This document shows, in pieces, positions 48,272 through 61,760 of a stretch of DNA of 64,000 nt (within the stretch, counting starts at the first letter, position 1; each line of letters starts with the position of its first letter). The notes beneath the pieces are model-generated. The model searched no databases. It was not told where the DNA came from and saw nothing but the letters and a program-made list of their open reading frames with translations. The stretch is from the IMG/VR virus record IMGVR_UViG_2061766007_000327. One strand, given 5' to 3'. The translations under genes and the position numbers were made by a program. The DNA is from an uncultured virus (IMG/VR IMGVR_UViG_2061766007_000327) (Duplodnaviria; Heunggongvirae; Uroviricota; Caudoviricetes).

Positions 48272-48427
48272 ATGGACAAGAGAGAATTAAGGTTAGGTGA
48301 CGAGGTGCTCTGGAACGGGCGCGTTGCGGTTGTTGACACATTGACGCAGACGTGTGTCGCGTTGGTGTGCATGGATAATGACGACTACGTGATCGTGAGT
48401 TATGCCGACGTTCAGCGGAAGAATTAG
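48272..48427 (+). CDS. Small hypothetical protein (MDKRELRLGDEVLWNGR...)
   Basis: 51 aa ORF read by hand, below the track cutoff, overlapping the next gene. Confidence 0.55.
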   Translation: MDKRELRLGDEVLWNGRVAVVDTLTQTCVALVCMDNDDYVIVSYADVQRKN

Positions 48428-48860
48428 GGATCGCCGGGTGAGCATCGGCGGGAGGTATGAGGTCAGTGACCTGGGGGTCGTCTACAGTGACGGGATGCCC
48501 CTGGCTGCGATCGGCGGAGTCGGTGTGAACCTCGGCGGGAAGCGGGTGAAGATCGCGGAGCTGGTTGCCGGGGCTTTCCTAGAGAAGGAGGAGGGGAAGT
48601 GCTGGGTGCGGCACCGGAACGGGGATGTGCGGGACAACCGGGTCTGCAATCTGGAGTGGAGTGACGAGCGTGAGGAGCCGAGGGGGCGTAGGAGCACGGA
48701 GCGGGTTGTGCGTGCGTTGCGTTTCGACGGCGAGGTGGTCGGTCAGTGGCGGAGCGTCCGGGAGGCGAGTGATGCGAGTGGTGTGAAGGCTGAGGGGATC
48801 AGGGCTTGCCTGCGAGGTGCGAGGAGGAGCAGCGGCGGGTTGCTCTGGATGGAGTTGTGA
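48402..48860 (+). CDS. HNH endonuclease-like protein with NUMOD4-like and NUMOD1-like segments
   Basis: 'YEVSDLG.V', 'VRHRNGDVRDNRVCNLEW', and a C-terminal 'WRSVREAS...G.....I..CL.G....GG..W'. Confidence 0.8.
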   Translation: MPTFSGRIRDRRVSIGGRYEVSDLGVVYSDGMPLAAIGGVGVNLGGKRVKIAELVAGAFLEKEEGKCWVRHRNGDVRDNRVCNLEWSDEREEPRGRRSTERVVRALRFDGEVVGQWRSVREASDASGVKAEGIRACLRGARRSSGGLLWMEL

Positions 48861-49225: not shown

Positions 49226-49291
49226 GGGTGAGGTAGCTCAGTTGGTTAGAGCGCGGTAAGAGGTCGGAGGTTCGAGTCCTCCCCTTGCTCC
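49226..49291 (+). ncRNA. tRNA-like RNA lacking the anticodon arm
   Basis: GGGTGAGG-TA-GCTC-AGTTGGTTA-GAGC-GCGGTAA-GAGGTC-GGAGG-TTCGAGT-CCTCC-CCTTGCTC. D and T arms are canonical, but only 7 nt sit where the anticodon arm should be. Confidence 0.75.
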
Positions 49292-53021: not shown

Positions 53022-53125
53022 TATTTTTGCACAGTAAGGTATGTGAGAGATACCGAGTGAAATTTTACAGCCCCTGTTAGTAGACGGTTGCTCTCACCTG
53101 CCGTTGAACGCGGGGGATTGTTTAT
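53022..53125 (+). promoter_or_regulatory. Promoter plus structured leader (kissing-loop hairpins) of an HNH gene
   Basis: TATTTTTG at 53022-53029. Loops GTGAGAG (53043-53049) and CTCTCAC (53091-53097) are complementary. Confidence 0.7.
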
Positions 53126-53130
53126 TATCC

Positions 53131-53703
53131 ATGGGGAAAGAAATTTGGAAACCGGTGGTCGGTTATGAGGGGCTATATGATGTAAGCAGCCTTGGACGAG
53201 TAAGAAGTTTAGGGAGAGTGATCGTGCAAAAAAACGGGAAAAGAATTAAGATTAGAGAGCGAATTCTTAAGCCGGCTATTCAGAATAGGGGTTATGAGTT
53301 CGTGTCTTTATCAAATTCTTTAGGGCAAAAATTAAAGCTTGTCCACCAGCTTGTAGGCAAGGCATTTATACCAAACCCGGATAATAAACCGTTTATAGAT
53401 CATATCAATGGCAACAGGAGGGACAACCGAGTTGAGAATTTGAGGTGGTGCACGCCTAAAGAGAACAATAACTTTGAGCTCGCGAGAAAGCACGCTTCGG
53501 ATGGTCTCCTAGGGAAAACCGGTTGGTTGTGCCCTAATTCTAAAAAGGTCAATCAATATACATTGGACGGTACTTTTATTAGAAGTTACTATGGCACTCG
53601 TGAGGCAAGTAGGGAAACTGGTATAAGAAATATATCACGAGCGTGCCTAAGCCCAACTAGGACAGCTGGCGGCTATATATGGAAATATGATAATATTAAG
53701 TAA
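53131..53703 (+). CDS. NUMOD4-HNH-NUMOD1 homing endonuclease
   Basis: 'EIWKPVVGYEGLYDVSSLGRVRS', 'IDHINGNRRDNRVENLRW', 'VNQYTLDG...AGGYIW'. Confidence 0.92.
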   Translation: MGKEIWKPVVGYEGLYDVSSLGRVRSLGRVIVQKNGKRIKIRERILKPAIQNRGYEFVSLSNSLGQKLKLVHQLVGKAFIPNPDNKPFIDHINGNRRDNRVENLRWCTPKENNNFELARKHASDGLLGKTGWLCPNSKKVNQYTLDGTFIRSYYGTREASRETGIRNISRACLSPTRTAGGYIWKYDNIK

Positions 53704-55558: not shown

Positions 55559-57167
55559 ATGAGTTCATCTCCGCTTAACCGGAAGACAGCGCCGCAGATC
55601 CTGCGGCTCTGTGCGTTATGCCTTAAAAATGGGGTGCTGGACGCCTATGAGATGGGCGATGATTATGCCGTTGAGGAATTCCTCCGTAAACATAAAGAGG
55701 GCTGGACATACGGTGTTCTAGGCGAGCCGGACGACTACGACTGGAAAATGTGGAGATTTTCTCTTTATAAATGGTGTAGAAGGAATGCTCTTTCTCAGTT
55801 TGCGGACAATTATCTGTACGAGGTAAAACGATATAACTATCTCTATTGCCCGATTCTGCTAAGCATGAGGTTCTATTTGATGGGGATTGAGGAATGGCTA
55901 TCTTATCCCAATCCCAGCGGAATAGAAATCTATCGGCAGAACACTAACCTGCACTGGTGGAAAAACGGGTCGGGGAGCAGAAAGATCACGAAGCGAGAGC
56001 TCATCATAGAAGCGCAGGGGATGGCTTATGAATACCGCAGGGTCCCCGAGGGGAAACGGGTCATCTCGTATTCCGTGCTGGATGAGTTCTGCTCGGCAAT
56101 ACACGATCTAACAAGCAAATATATCTATAAAAAAAGAATAATCATTGATGGAAAAGCAGTCCAAAACCTATAAAGTTCAACACTTGGAGCCTTCTACTCC
56201 TTGGTTGGGTTTTATCTTACTTCCATATGGGGAGTTTTACAGACCGACTAAGGATTTATTGAAGGCGAAGCCTGGCGATATCCTACGTTTTTTTCAGGGC
56301 TCGGATTATACCATAGAACGGGTAATGAAAATCCCGCAGGATAGCGTCTGCGATATGCTCTGCCGTATCGCATATGGTATACCGTGGGCGGTAGCACTTA
56401 AGAAATGGCAGTCGTACGCCATGCTCGAGGGGAATGACAGAAACGTTATTAGTTCAGATTATTGTTTGTGGGTAATATATGACACCAATCAACATTGACG
56501 CAAAATTCTCCGACAGAATTCTTATTCCCGGAGAGGCTATCCCGCCGGGTTGCCTTAGTGGAGTCTGTTTGAAAACGTCTGACGATGTAATTTGTCTGGC
56601 ATATTTTTTGTCCACTTGGGACAACGGCCAGCGTCGCTATTATGACGAGCTTGACCGCCTCTGCCATCGTCAATGGAACTGCAGTTTTGATCTGATAGAG
56701 ACGATGTGGCAGGGTAGGTTGGGACAAGTAGGCGACATCTGGCATTATATGGAACTTAAAAGGGTATAAAGATGAAGACAGAAGATTTGTTCAAGTATGG
56801 CGTGACCCCGAAGGAGGGCAAACGCAAGGGGGAACGGTTTAGGGTTCTCCAGATTTATCCCGACAGGCTGATTGTGACTGACTGGGAAACGGAGGAAAAG
56901 AATGAGATATTCTATCCCGGGACTTATGATTTGTGGCGCCCGGCGAAGACTCTTTTCGAGGATGACTCCATCAAGCCGACCTGGGGAAATCTCAAAAAGG
57001 CTGTCGAGGCTAATGGTTTGTCGGACGACACTTTGATTGTGACCGATCCTACGACATACGACATCTTCAGCCTCCTATCTCCGCGCTATAGGCTCGGGGC
57101 TAGAGCTCGCGTCGTGAAGCACACGAAGGACAACGGCGAGGAAGAGCCTGCTATAATGATTTATTGA
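55559..57167 (+). other. Four hypothetical genes (about 55559-56173, 56145-56498, 56479-56769, 56772-57167)
   Basis: Overlapping plus-strand ORFs with no recognisable motifs. Confidence 0.6.
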
Positions 57168-57321
57168 TGAACACTGCTATTGCTTTCCATTTGCTTGAAA
57201 AGGGAGAGGCGTGCTGCTTGTACGCCTCTATCCTTATTATGCGTGTAGGGGATCGGTGTTATATTTCTTTTGACGGGGAGAACTGGGAGGAGACCGACAG
57301 TGAGCTGATTAAGGAACAGAT

Positions 57322-57387
57322 ATGATTAAGCTCCGAGGATATCAGGAGGCTCTTATTGCAGAGGCTCGCCAAGCACTGGCAAATTAG
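57322..57387 (+). pseudogene. Stranded 5' remnant of the helicase gene (MIKLRGYQEALIAEARQALAN*)
   Basis: Similar to the helicase start at 58119 (MELRKYQQSLIEEARLAL) and includes the Q-motif LR.YQ. Confidence 0.8.
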
Positions 57388-57390
57388 ATA

Positions 57391-57520
57391 TTTGGTTTTT
57401 GAAAAATTCTTCTTATCTTTGCATAAACATTGTGTCGCAGACAATGAGTAGAAATATAACACCCAGAATGAGTAGTGCAGAGCTGCGACCTCTGTATGAA
57501 AGTTCTGGGATTGTTTTTTA
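57391..57520 (+). promoter_or_regulatory. Promoter plus structured kissing-loop leader of an HNH gene
   Basis: TTTG at 57391-57394 and TATCTTTG at 57414-57421. Loops GTCGCAG (57434-57440) and CTGCGAC (57483-57489) are complementary. Confidence 0.75.
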
Positions 57521-57525
57521 TAGAG

Positions 57526-58116
57526 ATGGAAGAAATTTGGAAGCCGATTGAAGGGTATGAAGGGAAGTATGAGATTAGTAATCTCGGCAGAGTAAACAGC
57601 CTAAATTACCTTGGGACTGGAAAGCCAAGAATAATGAAGCCATATAAGAACATTAGCAAGCATGGGAATGTTCCTTATCTTCAAGTAGACTTGTATAAGG
57701 ACGGTGTTGCGAGGTCTTTAAAAGTTCACTTTCTCGTTTGCCGGGCGTTTCATGGCTCGCGCCCTGCATCTATTAACGGCGACACTAATGTAGAGGCGAT
57801 GCACTTGAACGGTAATTCTCTCGATAATCGTGCCGAAAACCTTTCTTGGGGTAGGCACAGCGATAATGTCCGCGAGAAGACTTTTGTTGAAAAACAAGCC
57901 GCAGCACAAAGACGGAGGTGGGCTTCTGGAGAATATGAATATCAAAAGAAGGCCGTGGTTCAAATGTTGCCGAGTGGCGAGTTTGTTGCAAGGTATGCTT
58001 CTGCGTGGGATGCTCAACGAGTTACTGGTTGTAATCAAAGCGACATTTCTAAGCACTGTAGAGGAAAGAGGAAATGGCTAGTCGGTGGATTTCGATGGAA
58101 ATTCGAGAAGGAATAG
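57526..58116 (+). CDS. NUMOD4-HNH-NUMOD1 homing endonuclease
   Basis: 'EEIWKPIEGYEGKYEISNLGRV.S', 'MHLNGNSLDNRAENLSW', 'VGGFRWKF'. Confidence 0.9.
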   Translation: MEEIWKPIEGYEGKYEISNLGRVNSLNYLGTGKPRIMKPYKNISKHGNVPYLQVDLYKDGVARSLKVHFLVCRAFHGSRPASINGDTNVEAMHLNGNSLDNRAENLSWGRHSDNVREKTFVEKQAAAQRRRWASGEYEYQKKAVVQMLPSGEFVARYASAWDAQRVTGCNQSDISKHCRGKRKWLVGGFRWKFEKE

Positions 58117-58118
58117 TT

Positions 58119-59620
58119 ATGGAATTACGAAAATATCAGCAATCTTTAATTGAAGAAGCAAGGCTGGCCCTGTCGAGGCACAAGCACATCATAGTGCAGT
58201 CCCCGACAGGGTCAGGCTAACCGGCAAGGGCGTCCTTATCGGCTCGATGGCATCGATGAGCAAGTATCGTGTATTAATTCTGGCGCATAGCGAGGAAATC
58301 CTGGAGCAAGATGCAGGCCACGCTCGCAAATGGGGTATAGAAGTCGCAGAGGTCTTTGCGAAGACGCGCAAGATGCCAGAGACACGATGTGTAACAATGA
58401 TGGCGCAAACGCTTCGTCAAAGGCTGAAGAAGGTGGACTGGGCAGACTGGTTCTCTTCATTCGGGCTGATAATCTTAGACGAATGCCACAGGGCGGAATT
58501 CGACTTTGTCTTTGACAGCATCGACGACAAGGTCTTTGTTGTGGGGTTGTCTGCTTCCCCGGCGAGATATGGTCAGATGCGCCAATTAGGGCTGGATTAC
58601 GGGGCTGTTGTTATCGGTCCCCAGGTACAGGAGTTGATTGACGGCGGTTATCTCTGCCGCTGTAGGCTTTTCTCATTGGATGCACCCTCGCTGGAGGATG
58701 TGGAGTGGTCTTATGGCCGTGGTGACTACAATCTCAGCCAGATGGCCAGTAAATTCAAATCACGGGCTAGATATGTCGGAGCGGTCGAAAACTACCAACG
58801 AATCTGCCCGGGAGAGAAGACTCTGGTATTCTGTTGTTCCTCGGAGCAGACTATCGAACTGACAAAGGCTTTCTGCGACGCCGGTATTGACGCAAGATAC
58901 TGTCTGTCCGGCGATTTCGACGAAGATGAGGAGTACAGTGGCGATCGGAAAGGTGTCGTAGATGCCTTCGCGAGAGGAGATTTCCCCGTCCTCGTAAATT
59001 TCGGCTTATTTACGACGGGCATAGATATTCCGGACATCAAGGTCGTAATGCTTATGTTCTCCACGACATCGCTGGTGAAATACCTTCAGTGTCTCGGTAG
59101 AGCCTCGAGGATTGCGGACGGTAAGAATAATGAGTTCATCTGCCTCGATTTCGGGCGTAACTATGAGAGGTTGGGCAGATATGAGGATCGCCGGGAGTGG
59201 AGTGTCTGGCATAACACTTCTGCGGGTGGTGGCGTACCACCTACGAAGGAGTGCCCGCAGTGTGGGAGGCTTGTGCCAGTGTCGTGGACGGATTGTAAGT
59301 TTTGTGGATACCATTGGCCGACACAGCAGGAAACATACGTTGCGGAATTGCAGGAGGTGGTTGCCAGAGAGGATGACGAGACGATCGAGGGGTATGTCGC
59401 GAGGAAAAAACTGGAAGGGAAGAATAATAACTGGATCCTGGTTCAAGTCTGTATCAAGAATCCAGATAATCAGAAGGATGCTTTTATGCGGGCTATAGAA
59501 GTACTGAGAACAAAGCACGGGGCGAATATCAGCCCGAAATACTGGTATTTTTTTAAGAAGGAGATATTGAGCAAGGTTAAGGTTAAGAAAGAAGATAGCG
59601 ATTCTGTATTATGGAAATAG
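58119..59620 (+). CDS. SF2 DExH helicase with an 8-nt interruption in Walker A
   Basis: 58119-58217 encodes MELRKYQ...QSPTGSG followed by TAA. A different frame resumes with GGC AAG GGC at 58223. Downstream motifs: DECH, SASP, TGIDIP, QCLGRASR, and a CPQC/CKFC zinc finger. Confidence 0.85.
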
Positions 59621-59832
59621 GCGATAGGGTCAAAGTCGCCAGGCTTGACCAATACACACTTGATGTTATTATGGCGACTAACGCCAAGTCTCCGATAGGG
59701 ATGACTGGAACTATTATAGAGAAGTATTATAATCATAATATGAGAAGGGATGAGGTGGTCGTAGAGGCGGATGGCACTTGGGATAAGTGGCTTTGGACAC
59801 CTTGGAATTTAGATATCATATGCGGACATTGA
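59611..59832 (+). CDS. Small SH3/KOW-like hypothetical protein
   Basis: 'IGDRVKV......GMTGTII......V.V'. Confidence 0.55.
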   Translation: MEIGDRVKVARLDQYTLDVIMATNAKSPIGMTGTIIEKYYNHNMRRDEVVVEADGTWDKWLWTPWNLDIICGH

Positions 59833-59841
59833 TAGAGGCAT

Positions 59842-60015
59842 ATGGGGTTAGCAGGACTCGCGACAAAAAAAGGCGTGATTGTTAAGCAGACGACTCTCCC
59901 GTGGGTAAACTGCATCCATACCAATGTTGGCGGAGGGTGGAAGACGATGGAGGTATTAATATTGGAGGTATATGCAGATAGGGAACTTACTCCCGCCGAG
60001 ACAGATCGGATTTAA
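59842..60015 (+). CDS. Stand-alone C5-MTase TRD-like module 1
   Basis: Hand translation: MGLAGLATKKGVIVKQTTLPWVNCIHTNVGGGWKTMEVLILEVYADRELTPAETDRI*. An alternative start at 59820 would be in frame if the A7 tract were A6. Confidence 0.55.
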   Translation: MGLAGLATKKGVIVKQTTLPWVNCIHTNVGGGWKTMEVLILEVYADRELTPAETDRI

Positions 60016-60145
60016 TAATCCTCAAGAAGGTAGGATTTATTCCTTGGACGATGTGGGACCGACAATTCGGAACGATAGCAGATATTGGATATTAGAGGTA
60101 TATGATGAAGATAGCGGCGTACAACATAAAGAAACAGCGGAATGA
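59972..60145 (+). CDS. Stand-alone C5-MTase TRD-like module 2
   Basis: MQIGNLLPPRQIGFNNPQEGRIYSLDDVGPTIRNDSRYWILEVYDEDSGVQHKETAE*. Confidence 0.7.
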   Translation: MQIGNLLPPRQIGFNNPQEGRIYSLDDVGPTIRNDSRYWILEVYDEDSGVQHKETAE

Positions 60146-60305
60146 ATACGGCCGCCAGATCCGCAAGGATTACGAGGCTCATAGGCTTCCTGGGGTTCGC
60201 CGTAAGGATATAAAGGAACTAGTGCCGATGTTTGATGGTGTTTGTCGGACGATAACGACGATAGTCGAGGATAATTTATTGTTAGAGGTGTATGAAGGTG
60301 ATTAG
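60102..60305 (+). CDS. Stand-alone C5-MTase TRD-like module 3
   Basis: '...FDGVCRTITTIVEDNLLLEVYEGD*'. Confidence 0.7.
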   Translation: MMKIAAYNIKKQRNEYGRQIRKDYEAHRLPGVRRKDIKELVPMFDGVCRTITTIVEDNLLLEVYEGD

Positions 60306-61440
60306 TTGTGCTCTTCGCGGTAGAGGGGGCGTGTCTGGGCGAAAGGACTCTTGGCATCTCCGGCTCGAATTAGGGGACGAGGATGTAAGCAATACGATAG
60401 ACACTGTTCAAAAAGACTATTTGATAATGGAGATTATAGCGATAAAGAACCCGCTGAAAGGCAAGACGGGGTATGGCTGGCATTTTGAGCAGAATGTGTA
60501 CGAAATTGACTCGCTGGTACGGTCTTTGAAGGCTGGGGAGGGTTCAGGGAATATACCGAAAATTATTGATATGGCAAAACATTACAGAATTAGGAAGCTC
60601 ACTCCGACGGAGTGCCTGCGATTGATGGGTGTGAGCGACGAAGACATCCAGAAGATGAAGGATGCAGGCATTAGTGACAGTCAGTTGTATAAGATGGCGG
60701 ACAACAGCATAGTTGTGCCCGTGCTTGAGGGCATCTTCCGCAATATGGGATTCACAGAGAAACCGCTACGCGTGTTCGAGGCGTTTGCGGGCTACGGCTC
60801 GCAGAGTATGGCTCTTCGGAACATCGGCGTCGATCACGAGGTGGTCGGTATCAGCGAGATCGACAAGTATGCGATTATGGGCTATAACGCCACGCACCCG
60901 GAAACGAAGAATTTCGGAGACATCAGCGAGATAGACTGGCAGGAAGTGCCGGATTTCAACCTGTTTACCTACAGCTTCCCTTGTACGGACATCTCGAATG
61001 CGGGCGCACAGGCTGGATTTGAAGAAGGGAGCGGCACTAGGAGCAGTCTTTTGTGGGAGTGCAAGAAGGCTATCGAGGAGAAGCATCCGAAATATCTGCT
61101 GATGGAGAACGTGAAGGCAATCACGAGCAAGAAGTTCCTACCCGGTATTTTAAGATGGCAGGAGTTCCTGTCGAAGCAGGGATATGTCAACTTCATCGAT
61201 GTGCTGAATGCGAAGGACTACGGGATTCCGCAGAATCGGGAGCGGTGTTTCTTGGTTTCTATCCTGGATGCTGCGTGGTATCAATTCCCCGAGCCAGTGG
61301 AACTGACGCTGAAATTGAAAGATATCCTAGAACCCACTGTCAGTGAGAAATATTATCTTGACCAAGCGAGGGTTGACAAATTTATAGCGGGACTGAGTGA
61401 TGAAAAACGAGCTGCACTTGAAGAAGGTCGTACCGATTAA
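60292..61440 (+). CDS. Circularly permuted DNA (cytosine-5) methyltransferase
   Basis: Domain order: two TRD-like segments, motif IX (RKLTPTECLRLMG), X (QLYKMADNSIVV), I (FEAFAGYG), IV (FPC), VI (MENV), VIII (PQNRER). Confidence 0.92.
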   Translation: MKVISCALRGRGGVSGRKDSWHLRLELGDEDVSNTIDTVQKDYLIMEIIAIKNPLKGKTGYGWHFEQNVYEIDSLVRSLKAGEGSGNIPKIIDMAKHYRIRKLTPTECLRLMGVSDEDIQKMKDAGISDSQLYKMADNSIVVPVLEGIFRNMGFTEKPLRVFEAFAGYGSQSMALRNIGVDHEVVGISEIDKYAIMGYNATHPETKNFGDISEIDWQEVPDFNLFTYSFPCTDISNAGAQAGFEEGSGTRSSLLWECKKAIEEKHPKYLLMENVKAITSKKFLPGILRWQEFLSKQGYVNFIDVLNAKDYGIPQNRERCFLVSILDAAWYQFPEPVELTLKLKDILEPTVSEKYYLDQARVDKFIAGLSDEKRAALEEGRTD

Positions 61441-61576
61441 CGCAACGCCAGACGGCTTTTGCCGGACTATAAAAGCACAGTATTACAAAAATGGATTCCG
61501 CAATTTCACATTTTTCGAAGACGGCGGTTTTGGCGCGACGGGAGTGCTTGAAATGTATGAAGAGGACGATAAATAA
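61400..61576 (+). CDS. Stand-alone TRD-like module 6
   Basis: MKNELHLKKVVPINATPDGFCRTIKAQYYKNGFRNFTFFEDGGFGATGVLEMYEEDDK*. Confidence 0.7.
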   Translation: MKNELHLKKVVPINATPDGFCRTIKAQYYKNGFRNFTFFEDGGFGATGVLEMYEEDDK

Positions 61577-61760
61577 TGAGACCCCGGTTGCGAAGATTTT
61601 TAATCTGGGTGATGGAAGGTTTGCGATGAATGCTCCGGACGGCGTTGCGTGTACACTAACTGGTGCCCATCACTTTGCTGGAAATATAACTCATCCTCGA
61701 CAGGGGTTTAGACAGATGGGAGTATTGGAGATTGAGGATACGCCGGAGGATTCCGAATAA
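61557..61760 (+). CDS. Stand-alone TRD-like module 7
   Basis: MKRTINNE...NAPDGVACTLTGAHHFAGNITHPRQGFRQMGVLEIEDTPEDSE*. Confidence 0.65.
   Translation: MKRTINNETPVAKIFNLGDGRFAMNAPDGVACTLTGAHHFAGNITHPRQGFRQMGVLEIEDTPEDSE

Follow-up and report, generated by a model that had tools for sequence, protein, structure and literature searches.

The 64,000-nucleotide (nt) stretch of an uncultured tailed phage analysed here (IMG/VR record IMGVR_UViG_2061766007_000327; called the window in what follows) carries a gene for a RadD-like SF2 helicase whose reading frame is broken, within the codons of the P-loop (Walker A motif), by an 8-nt coding gap. We found the same interruption in eight distinct alleles of this gene, each time with a stop codon at its start and each time together with an RNA hairpin that closes on the edge of the gap. 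We propose that the helicase would be made as one polypeptide by a programmed +8 stop-hop driven by refolding of this hairpin, a miniature of the bypassing known from gene 60 of phage T4, and we give this reading a probability of roughly 60%. A programmed hop from GGC to GGC had been the original prediction, drawn from the letters of the window; conservation of the gap, the stop and the landing codon, synonymous variation specific to one frame and an insert-specific hairpin now lend it support. The hairpin, the mosaic and apparently mobile block in which it lies and an adjacent HNH gene formed no part of how the site had then been read.

On the plus strand, positions 58197-58234 read CAG TCC CCG ACA GGG TCA GGC TAA CC GGC AAG GGC GTC. 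The first helicase segment (58119-58217) counts 33 codons, from its ATG to the presumed take-off codon GGC (Gly, 58215-58217), and its peptide ends in QSPTGSG. TAA follows directly (58218-58220) and would stand in the A site at take-off; then come two gap bases, CC in the window (58221-58222), and a second GGC (58223-58225), the presumed landing codon, which together with 58218-58222 makes up the 8-nt gap. The second segment (58226-59620) resumes at AAG, the codon of the P-loop Lys, and its frame is open for 465 codons from GGC 58223 to the stop at 59618-59620. The gap, the TAA after the first GGC and the second GGC opening the helicase frame are exactly as the original prediction had stated. 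The landing GGC is the earliest triplet past take-off able to pair with the same tRNA-Gly, and skipping the 8 nt yields the P-loop SPTGSGKGVLIG, the same as that encoded unbroken by insert-free relatives. A separate initiation cannot reach the Lys codon (58226-58228), because the first ATG, GTG or TTG after the preceding stop in the downstream frame is the ATG at 58247.

A stop placed between matched codons is, by itself, a common pattern. Both strands of the window were scanned for at least 25 open codons, a stop, the same codon 4-15 nt further on and out of frame, and at least 120 open codons; this returned 20 matches, two of them at the helicase site, and no convincing further micro-gap elsewhere in the window. 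As the bare pattern is this frequent, the case rests on the comparison between alleles, and a single sequence proves nothing.

For that comparison we used a pattern that fixed the amino-acid context only; the Gly codons could have any wobble base, the stop was written as TRR, and any two bases could follow it. It matched 3 loci in viral contigs, 30 in metagenome contigs and none in genome contigs; 8 of the 30 metagenome matches are the interrupted helicase and 22 are unrelated chance matches. Two matches set aside as chance are L021, which sits within a continuous primase-like open reading frame (ORF), and L042/43, whose sequence context is subtilase-like. A pattern with a 7-nt gap found 0 loci, and one with a variable gap (1-30 nt) recovered nothing beyond those 3 viral contigs, whose gap measures 8 nt in each case. 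Among the 15 relatives in viral contigs, the 8-nt insert stands at the same codon in two (L004 and L007) and the P-loop is unbroken in 13. Altogether, eight distinct insert-bearing alleles lie on separate contigs (the window, L017, L018, L019, L023, L040, L041 and L047), four further insert-bearing loci being identical copies that are not counted among them, and in 14 insert-free relatives the P-loop codons are uninterrupted.

The gap reads GGC TAA CC GGC in the window, L019 and L023, GGC TAA AC GGC in L018, GGC TGA AC GGC in L017, GGC TGA AA GGC in L040, GGC TAA TT GGC in L047 and GGC TGA AC GGA in L041. The take-off codon is thus GGC in all eight alleles (GGC, GGA or GGG at the equivalent position of insert-free relatives), the stop is TAA in five and TGA in three and never a sense codon, the next two bases appear unconstrained (CC, AC, AA or TT), and the landing codon is GGC in all but L041. 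Logan contigs of four sequencing runs from four other studies (X5-X8) span 58200-58240 with 0 gaps, with the limit that these are contigs, not raw reads, and that contigs drop rare variants. An error of sequencing or assembly could appeal to the fact that the window is a single metagenome-type contig; eight alleles on different contigs and four independent runs without an indel exclude an assembly error or a one-off mutation, and we give an artefact practically no weight. The original prediction had proposed to align homologous helicases at this site and to confirm the 8 nt in sequencing data: the alignment shows the same interruption in all eight alleles, and the confirmation holds at the level of contigs, which keep the gap in four runs with 0 indels, but not at that of raw reads.

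Both parts of the interrupted gene behave as coding sequence. The 33 upstream codons are intact from the ATG in all eight alleles, and the downstream ORF is complete (464-475 amino acids) in five and open to the contig end in the other three. Across the upstream segment the ratio of non-synonymous to synonymous substitution rates (dN/dS) lies between 0.09 and 0.60, and thus below 1, for every one of the 28 allele pairs, among which dS reaches about 1.5. Directly ahead of take-off, the codons for Thr (ACA/ACG/ACC) and Ser (TCA/TCT) vary only synonymously in the upstream frame, while two of the three changes alter the residue of the other frame (Arg to Gly and Arg to Trp; ACA to ACC leaves Arg); this shows that reading in the upstream frame extends to the Ser codon adjoining the take-off Gly. 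Over the nine codons past landing, allele pairs differ by 1-8 synonymous and 0-1 non-synonymous changes each, which shows the downstream frame in use from the landing codon on. Judged from these substitution patterns, both flanking parts of the helicase ORF are under purifying selection.

This bears on the reading that the insert inactivates the helicase and is not bypassed at all, being a tolerated scar or a selfish recombining block in a dispensable gene, perhaps spread by gene conversion through a homing endonuclease, with the hairpin serving the element at the DNA or RNA level. A dead gene is hard to reconcile with the fact that 0 of 8 alleles has suffered another frame break or stop in either of its two parts, or with a landing codon, a stop and an exact length of 8 that are kept while nearby synonymous sites and the two gap bases vary. 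The sister insert-bearing alleles L018 and L019 have diverged to a dS of 0.65 over 475 codons of the downstream part with a dN/dS of 0.055; the 33 upstream codons, useless alone, are still under purifying selection; and the same allele is found in contigs of the four other runs.

The insert goes with a structure in the RNA. A conserved hairpin of about 15 bp (58161-58218, plus strand) has its 5' arm at 58161-58175, its 3' arm at 58204-58218 and an inner 4-bp stem at 58184-58187/58194-58197, the 3' arm ending on the take-off codon plus the first base (T) of the stop. The 5' region of the window folds better than its shuffles (z = -3.99). The same hairpin is the minimum free energy (MFE) structure in all eight insert-bearing alleles, in agreement with the RNAalifold consensus, and each allele folds with an MFE z of -2.8 to -4.9 against 1000 synonymous-codon shuffles, of which 0-12 per allele fold as well. 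Stem pairs formed number 12-15 of 15 in the eight insert-bearing alleles versus 3-10 of 15 in the 14 insert-free relatives, a count biased by a pair list that was derived from the insert-bearing set; the MFE tests are free of this bias. Over the hairpin, 95.4% of alignment cells are paired, and the covariation score was matched in 8 of 500 shuffles. L047 carries a compensatory change, with Leu CTG to Gln CAG in the 5' arm and Ser TCA to TCT in the 3' arm, and keeps the pair, which explains why RLALS goes with the insert. A small hairpin downstream of landing (columns 118-132) and a pairing of the gap bases CC specific to the window are not conserved across the alleles. An internal Shine-Dalgarno stimulator of the prfB type (A GGG, 3 nt before take-off) was considered and set aside, as hairpin pairing explains the invariant GGG.

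The exact coincidence of hairpin end and insert might also be read as a sign that the 8 nt are removed before translation, through hairpin-guided RNA excision or editing or through a DNA subpopulation that lacks them, and run X7 does contain insert-free alleles beside the insert-bearing one. The insert-free pieces of X7, however, differ in their upstream sequence and are hence other alleles and not deletion variants; no joints or indels occur at the site in contigs of the four runs (which would drop rare variants); and we know of no such 8-nt RNA excision in bacteria or phages. Removal before translation is in our opinion very improbable.

On the proposed hop, a ribosome would translate 33 codons from the ATG at 58119 and stall with peptidyl-tRNA-Gly on GGC 58215-58217 and TAA in the A site; the tRNA would unpair, the mRNA would slide by 8 nt, the same tRNA would re-pair at GGC 58223-58225, and decoding would pick up again at AAG 58226. 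Judged from sequence, tRNA-Gly would form 3 of 3 base pairs with GGC at a shift of +8, compared with 1 of 3 with AGG at -1 and 0 of 3 with CTA at +2. The product would contain a tryptic junction peptide HIIVQSPTGSGK, with the junction reading GSGK. At take-off the 5' arm and loop of the hairpin would already be outside the ribosome, and the 3' arm (58204-58218) would span the exit side to the P and A sites, so that each base of forward slide would allow one more pair to form behind the ribosome; an 8-nt slide would free the bases of an inner 8-bp stem. The upstream hairpin thus probably supplies the direction of the slide. Upstream of the P site the ribosome covers approximately 12 nt. With a footprint of 12 nt assumed, the release of 8 further nt brings a mean gain in folding energy of -7.0 kcal/mol in the eight insert-bearing alleles versus -2.6 kcal/mol in the 14 insert-free ones, a contrast that becomes smaller at an assumed footprint of 13-14 nt. 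This idea matches the proposal that exit-side pairing of the mRNA is the forward driver in gene 60, and also the 5' stem-loop proposed for a short bypass in a Streptomyces phage.

A ribosomal frameshift of -1 (or +2) at or just before the stop would also join the two frames. CTA ACC GGC would then be read, the helicase would gain three extra residues (SPTGSG-LT-GKG), and a tryptic peptide HIIVQSPTGSGLTGK would be expected, with the junction GSGLTGK. The original prediction had dismissed such a shift on the ground that it breaks the spacing of the motif, an argument that is unsound: judged from sequence, G-S-G-L-T-G-K, or G-S-G-L-x-G-K in general, still fits GxxxxGK, with the three extra residues before it. 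The Leu codon (CTA or CTG) of that frame is conserved in all eight alleles, and a stop in the A site is a known stimulator of frameshifting, as in prfB. Other features of the site do not suit a shift. There is no slippery heptamer of the form X XXY YYZ in 58190-58222, nor is one conserved, and the only conserved structure lies 5' of the site, not 3'. As the synonymous variation described above shows the upstream frame to be read as far as the Ser codon, a shift must fall on GGC, where re-pairing of tRNA-Gly is poor at -1 and nil at +2. The second extra residue is T, N, K or I among the alleles and looks unconstrained, and a three-residue insertion between strand 1 and the P-loop occurs in 0 of the 14 insert-free relatives. 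An upstream hairpin refolding behind the ribosome would, moreover, be expected to pull the mRNA forward and not backward. We regard a frameshift as improbable.

Several points weigh against the hop, besides the bias in the pair count and the dependence of the energy gain on the footprint. The case for it consists of sequence comparison and folding computation. The eight insert-bearing alleles are related, so that counts over them are not counts of independent events. The change from TAA to TGA upstream is, in the other frame, a synonymous change of Leu from CTA to CTG, and a conserved stop and a conserved Leu are therefore indistinguishable in these data. In L041 the landing codon is GGA, with which a GCC anticodon would form a wobble mismatch, and the match between take-off and landing codon is thus not absolute. 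Covariation in the hairpin is thin: 12 of 19 pairs are invariant, double changes occur in 2 of 19 (3 cells), and the number of pairs with double changes was matched in 47 of 500 shuffles. The insert-free allele L003 gains as much as -9.6 kcal/mol in the folding-energy test. Since the 5' block recombines (see below), the intact downstream ORFs and the low dN/dS could in part be due to a recent move of the block into genes that were healthy. Finally, the known short hops that lack stimulators are inefficient, as far as the accounts used here describe them.

The inheritance of the gap is mosaic. On a helicase tree of 26 rows, 22 of them distinct and L050 and L052 (introduced below) not among them, the rows with the insert are scattered and not monophyletic; the fewest changes that explain them are 6, at least 4 of which are forced by well-supported branches, and as few changes arose in 16 of 500 label shuffles. 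Sliding identities point the same way. L040, with the insert, and L005, without it, are 86-100% identical over most of the gene and 72-73% in the first ~135 nt; the window and L017 share 92/91% in the 5' part and 57-77% elsewhere; at about 58220 the identity of the window and L050 rises abruptly from 52-58% to 95-98%, and that of the window and L023 drops there from 85-88% to 72%. Contigs of X5, X6 and X8 match the window up to 58341 and then diverge, which gives a minimum shared block of 57800-58341 (plus strand) comprising the 3' part of an HNH gene and the 5' part of the helicase with hairpin and gap; the compared stretch began at 57800, which accordingly does not set the 5' limit of the block. 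The sliding identities and the shared contig block indicate that a 5' block with hairpin and gap has been exchanged among alleles, with breakpoints that cluster at the gap.

The HNH ORF of this block, of the homing-endonuclease type, lies directly 5' of the helicase start (57475-58116, plus strand) and matches NUMOD4 (8e-12) and HNH_3 (2.5e-6) in Pfam and the HNH endonuclease family of PHROG (1.4e-32). Its listed GTG start is mechanical, and a likely start is the internal Met of MEEIWKPIEGY. Homologues with 72-73% identity occupy the same position in L023, which has the gap, and in L050, which has none and whose P-loop codons are altered (P-loop QGPTGMGKG; helicase allele at 3143-3260 of L050); the gap is thus present at two of the three loci with a homologous HNH gene directly upstream. 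Conversely, the HNH gene is directly upstream in two of the eight insert-bearing alleles (the window and L023), and tblastn finds it absent there in the other six. That it always travels with the gap was accordingly rejected. In L050 the same DNA site may have been changed by another route. The homologue of window positions 56479-56769 abuts the helicase in L004 and L007, and the window has about 1.3 kb extra between the two (56772-58116; ORFs 56772-57167 and 57164-57325, then the HNH gene), an insertion relative to L004 and L007. Three HNH-type ORFs lie within about 10 kb of the replication module, at 48402-48860 (weak, below the Pfam cut-offs), at 53104-53703 (with NUMOD4, HNH_3 and NUMOD1) and at 57475-58116; the phage is heavily colonised by free-standing endonuclease genes.

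Part of this can be claimed for the view, set out above, that the gene is dead. The block is mosaic, its carriers are not monophyletic on the tree, insert-bearing alleles resemble one another far more closely in the 5' part than over the remainder of the gene, the breakpoints fall at the insert, low dN/dS could be imported from healthy alleles, and the presence of a D5-type primase-helicase means that the SF2 helicase may be dispensable. Set beside the intact frames and the preserved architecture of the gap, these observations leave an inactivated gene, in our estimate, unlikely. The mosaic tracts and the breakpoints at the insert fit homing by an endonuclease with NUMOD4 and HNH_3, as predicted from its domains. 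One might suppose, as a secondary and weaker inference, that hairpin and gap form a mobile cassette which spreads by recombination among helicase alleles, and that the conserved DNA of the P-loop may, thanks to the gap, escape a homing endonuclease, a protection that has been reported for the T4 gene 60 insert and MobA; by this analogy, the link to the gene 60/MobA story of insert protection is no more than suggestive. Still more speculatively, hairpin, stop and 5 nt might amount to a minimal self-contained mobile bypass cassette, in which a single exit-side hairpin, with neither a special nascent peptide nor a Shine-Dalgarno element, would drive an efficient 8-nt slide in a Bacteroidota host, and which would spread among phage replication genes since the gap breaks homing-endonuclease targets in the DNA that the gene conserves most strongly. 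We hold this last proposal to be doubtful.

The interrupted gene is, on its domain matches, a RadD-like SF2 helicase with a ResIII core that contains the P-loop, a Helicase_C domain and a C-terminal zinc ribbon. Its downstream part matches ResIII (5.3e-8), Helicase_C (8.5e-11) and the UPF0547 zinc ribbon (1.4e-7) in Pfam; its best solved relative is RadD (6jde, 1.4e-15), and it matches the DNA helicase family PHROG_16 (5e-56). The Walker A motif ends in GKG (58226-58231 in the window), not in GKT or GKS, in all close relatives (L002-L014, L050 and L052), with or without the insert, so that the usual Mg-binding Ser/Thr is missing in this helicase subfamily; the distant relatives L001, L015 and L016 have GKT or GKS.

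The bypass of T4 gene 60 spans 50 nt and lies within an HNH element, MobA (10.1101/2022.08.31.505936; 10.1101/2024.12.09.627546). As these sources describe it in the parts drawn on here, it belongs to a mobile HNH element and is retained after loss of the endonuclease, works with stop or hungry codons in the A site, tolerates wobble at landing, and has been proposed to be driven forward by pairing of the mRNA at the exit side of the ribosome. The helicase gap resembles it in having matching Gly codons for take-off and landing and a stop that would occupy the A site when the tRNA leaves the first of them, in interrupting an invariant motif of a DNA-metabolism enzyme, in having an mRNA stem-loop 5' of take-off of the kind thought to push the ribosome forward by refolding at the exit, in sitting in a cassette that behaves as mobile DNA with an HNH gene adjacent in some carriers and absent in others, and in the wobble-level landing mismatch, tolerated in gene 60 and present in L041. 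It differs from the published description of gene 60 in measuring 8 nt and not 50, with no room inside for a take-off stem-loop or a mini-Shine-Dalgarno; in the host gene, a RadD-like helicase and not a topoisomerase, which is not split into two ORFs with added tails; in the nascent peptide, which is the native helicase N-terminus also found in uninterrupted relatives; and in a hairpin whose 3' arm includes the take-off codon itself. MobA, according to the same sources, is inserted in the Toprim domain of the large subunit of a phage topoisomerase II, to which it adds CTE/NTE tails, whereas here an HNH gene stands upstream of an unsplit helicase, is missing from that position in most gap carriers and has a gapless carrier in L050. 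The helicase gap would work like gene 60 bypassing but lies outside that homologous family, from which host gene and layout set it apart; likeness in sequence to the gene 60 cassette was not searched for.

Other precedents are shorter or more remote. Short, unprogrammed stop-hops have been described from E. coli constructs, in which a single amino acid is encoded by 9 nt (Weiss et al. 1987, O'Connor et al. 1989, via PMC5009743); there too the peptidyl-tRNA in the P site lets go of a codon that adjoins a stop and pairs again, a few bases further on, with a codon that matches. As summarised in that source, those hops are low-level, in-frame and seen in synthetic reporters without stimulators, whereas the shift in the helicase is +8, changes frame, and occurs in a natural gene, conserved and with a dedicated hairpin; for in-frame stop hopping the same review (PMC5009743) gives no known natural occurrence. 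The terminase gene of a Streptomyces phage is described as having a short bypass with a 5' stem-loop, the junction peptide having been seen by mass spectrometry in E. coli with a stop in the A site. It shares with the helicase a short coding gap in a phage gene and proposed stimulators 5' of the gap, including a stem-loop; it differs, in the description used here, in take-off by a rare UUA codon, a proposed regulatory role, an invoked Shine-Dalgarno interaction and an actinobacterial host, and that description ties it neither to a conserved catalytic motif nor to mobile DNA. The bypassed elements (byps) of Magnusiomyces capitatus mitochondria are 27-55 nt long. There are 81 of them (PMC5009743), likewise short and otherwise inactivating inserts skipped by translation, with imperfect matches of take-off and landing tolerated; they belong to a mitochondrial system with relaxed decoding and are, by that account, context-independent. 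A 29-nt hop reported for the adhesin gene plaA of Prevotella loescheii, never followed up according to the review (PMC5009743), would be a case in a Bacteroidota organism, the likely host phylum of the phage, though with a longer gap and in a chromosomal gene. A literature search for bypassing in a phage helicase or a P-loop, most subscription journals being outside its reach, found none; it found bypassing only in the gene 60 family, the mitochondrial byps, the Streptomyces phage candidate, the unconfirmed plaA hop and the synthetic stop-hops.

The window is a tailed-phage genome, with a tape measure protein, a capsid-like protein, fibres with BACON domains and the D5-type primase-helicase, and it also encodes a YqaJ nuclease, a VRR-NUC nuclease and the three HNH ORFs. 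The nearest named phages are two Parabacteroides phages, with 44.5% helicase identity and an uninterrupted helicase; the relative L052, a genome contig from a metagenome-assembled genome labelled Alistipes, has 64% identity and no insert. A megablast of 57400-59700 against the phage collection gave no match. The sequencing runs in which the stretch occurs carry the labels of gut metagenomes from ruminants or other animals, and none was listed as RNA. Tetramers resembling a Shine-Dalgarno sequence precede 14 of the 61 gene starts in the window, a scarcity that fits a Bacteroidota-type host, and the host is likely to belong to that phylum. Strong ribosome-binding sites of the GGAGG type are found at few genes (31224, 31711, 37784, 39146 (minus strand) and 21561).

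No phage-encoded tRNA-Gly or odd tRNA that might promote hopping was found, ARAGORN calling no tRNA in the window. At 49227-49290, just upstream of the primase-helicase gene, an Rfam tRNA match of 43.6 bits has 5 nt in place of the anticodon arm, and in L005 a sequence like a tRNA 3' end lies immediately 5' of the helicase start. Beyond the helicase, six chained ORFs at 59842-61760 are each in the +1 frame relative to the previous one (59842-60015, 59972-60145, 60102-60305, 60292-61440, 61397-61576 and 61491-61760). Five of the six end in LEVY, LEMY or LEIE plus an acidic tail, the exception being the long ORF at 60292-61440, and the following ORF begins with an ATG that overlaps the LEVY/LEMY codons at four of the five junctions. 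The long ORF is a C5 DNA methylase (Pfam, 4e-58), in which motifs IX-X are presumably N-terminal and followed by I-VIII; the chain looks as if a multispecific methylase had its target-recognition modules distributed among different frames.

Natural bypassing in bacteria and phages rests essentially on the gene 60 cassette family and one partly tested case in a Streptomyces phage. If the helicase is indeed made by a hop, this would be the smallest natural bypass known, with matched codons, a stop and one upstream hairpin as its only evident signals, and it would offer a clean natural test of exit-side mRNA pairing as the driver of sliding, as hairpin arm, gap length and landing codon can all be mutated in a cassette of 140 nt. 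Gene callers start such helicases at an internal ATG or call them pseudogenes, so that similar cases are probably hidden in phage metagenomes. The association known from T4 recurs here in a second, unrelated gene family, with a mobile block, breakpoints at the gap and HNH genes nearby; if true, it would suggest that a general path leads from selfish nucleases to new recoding sites.

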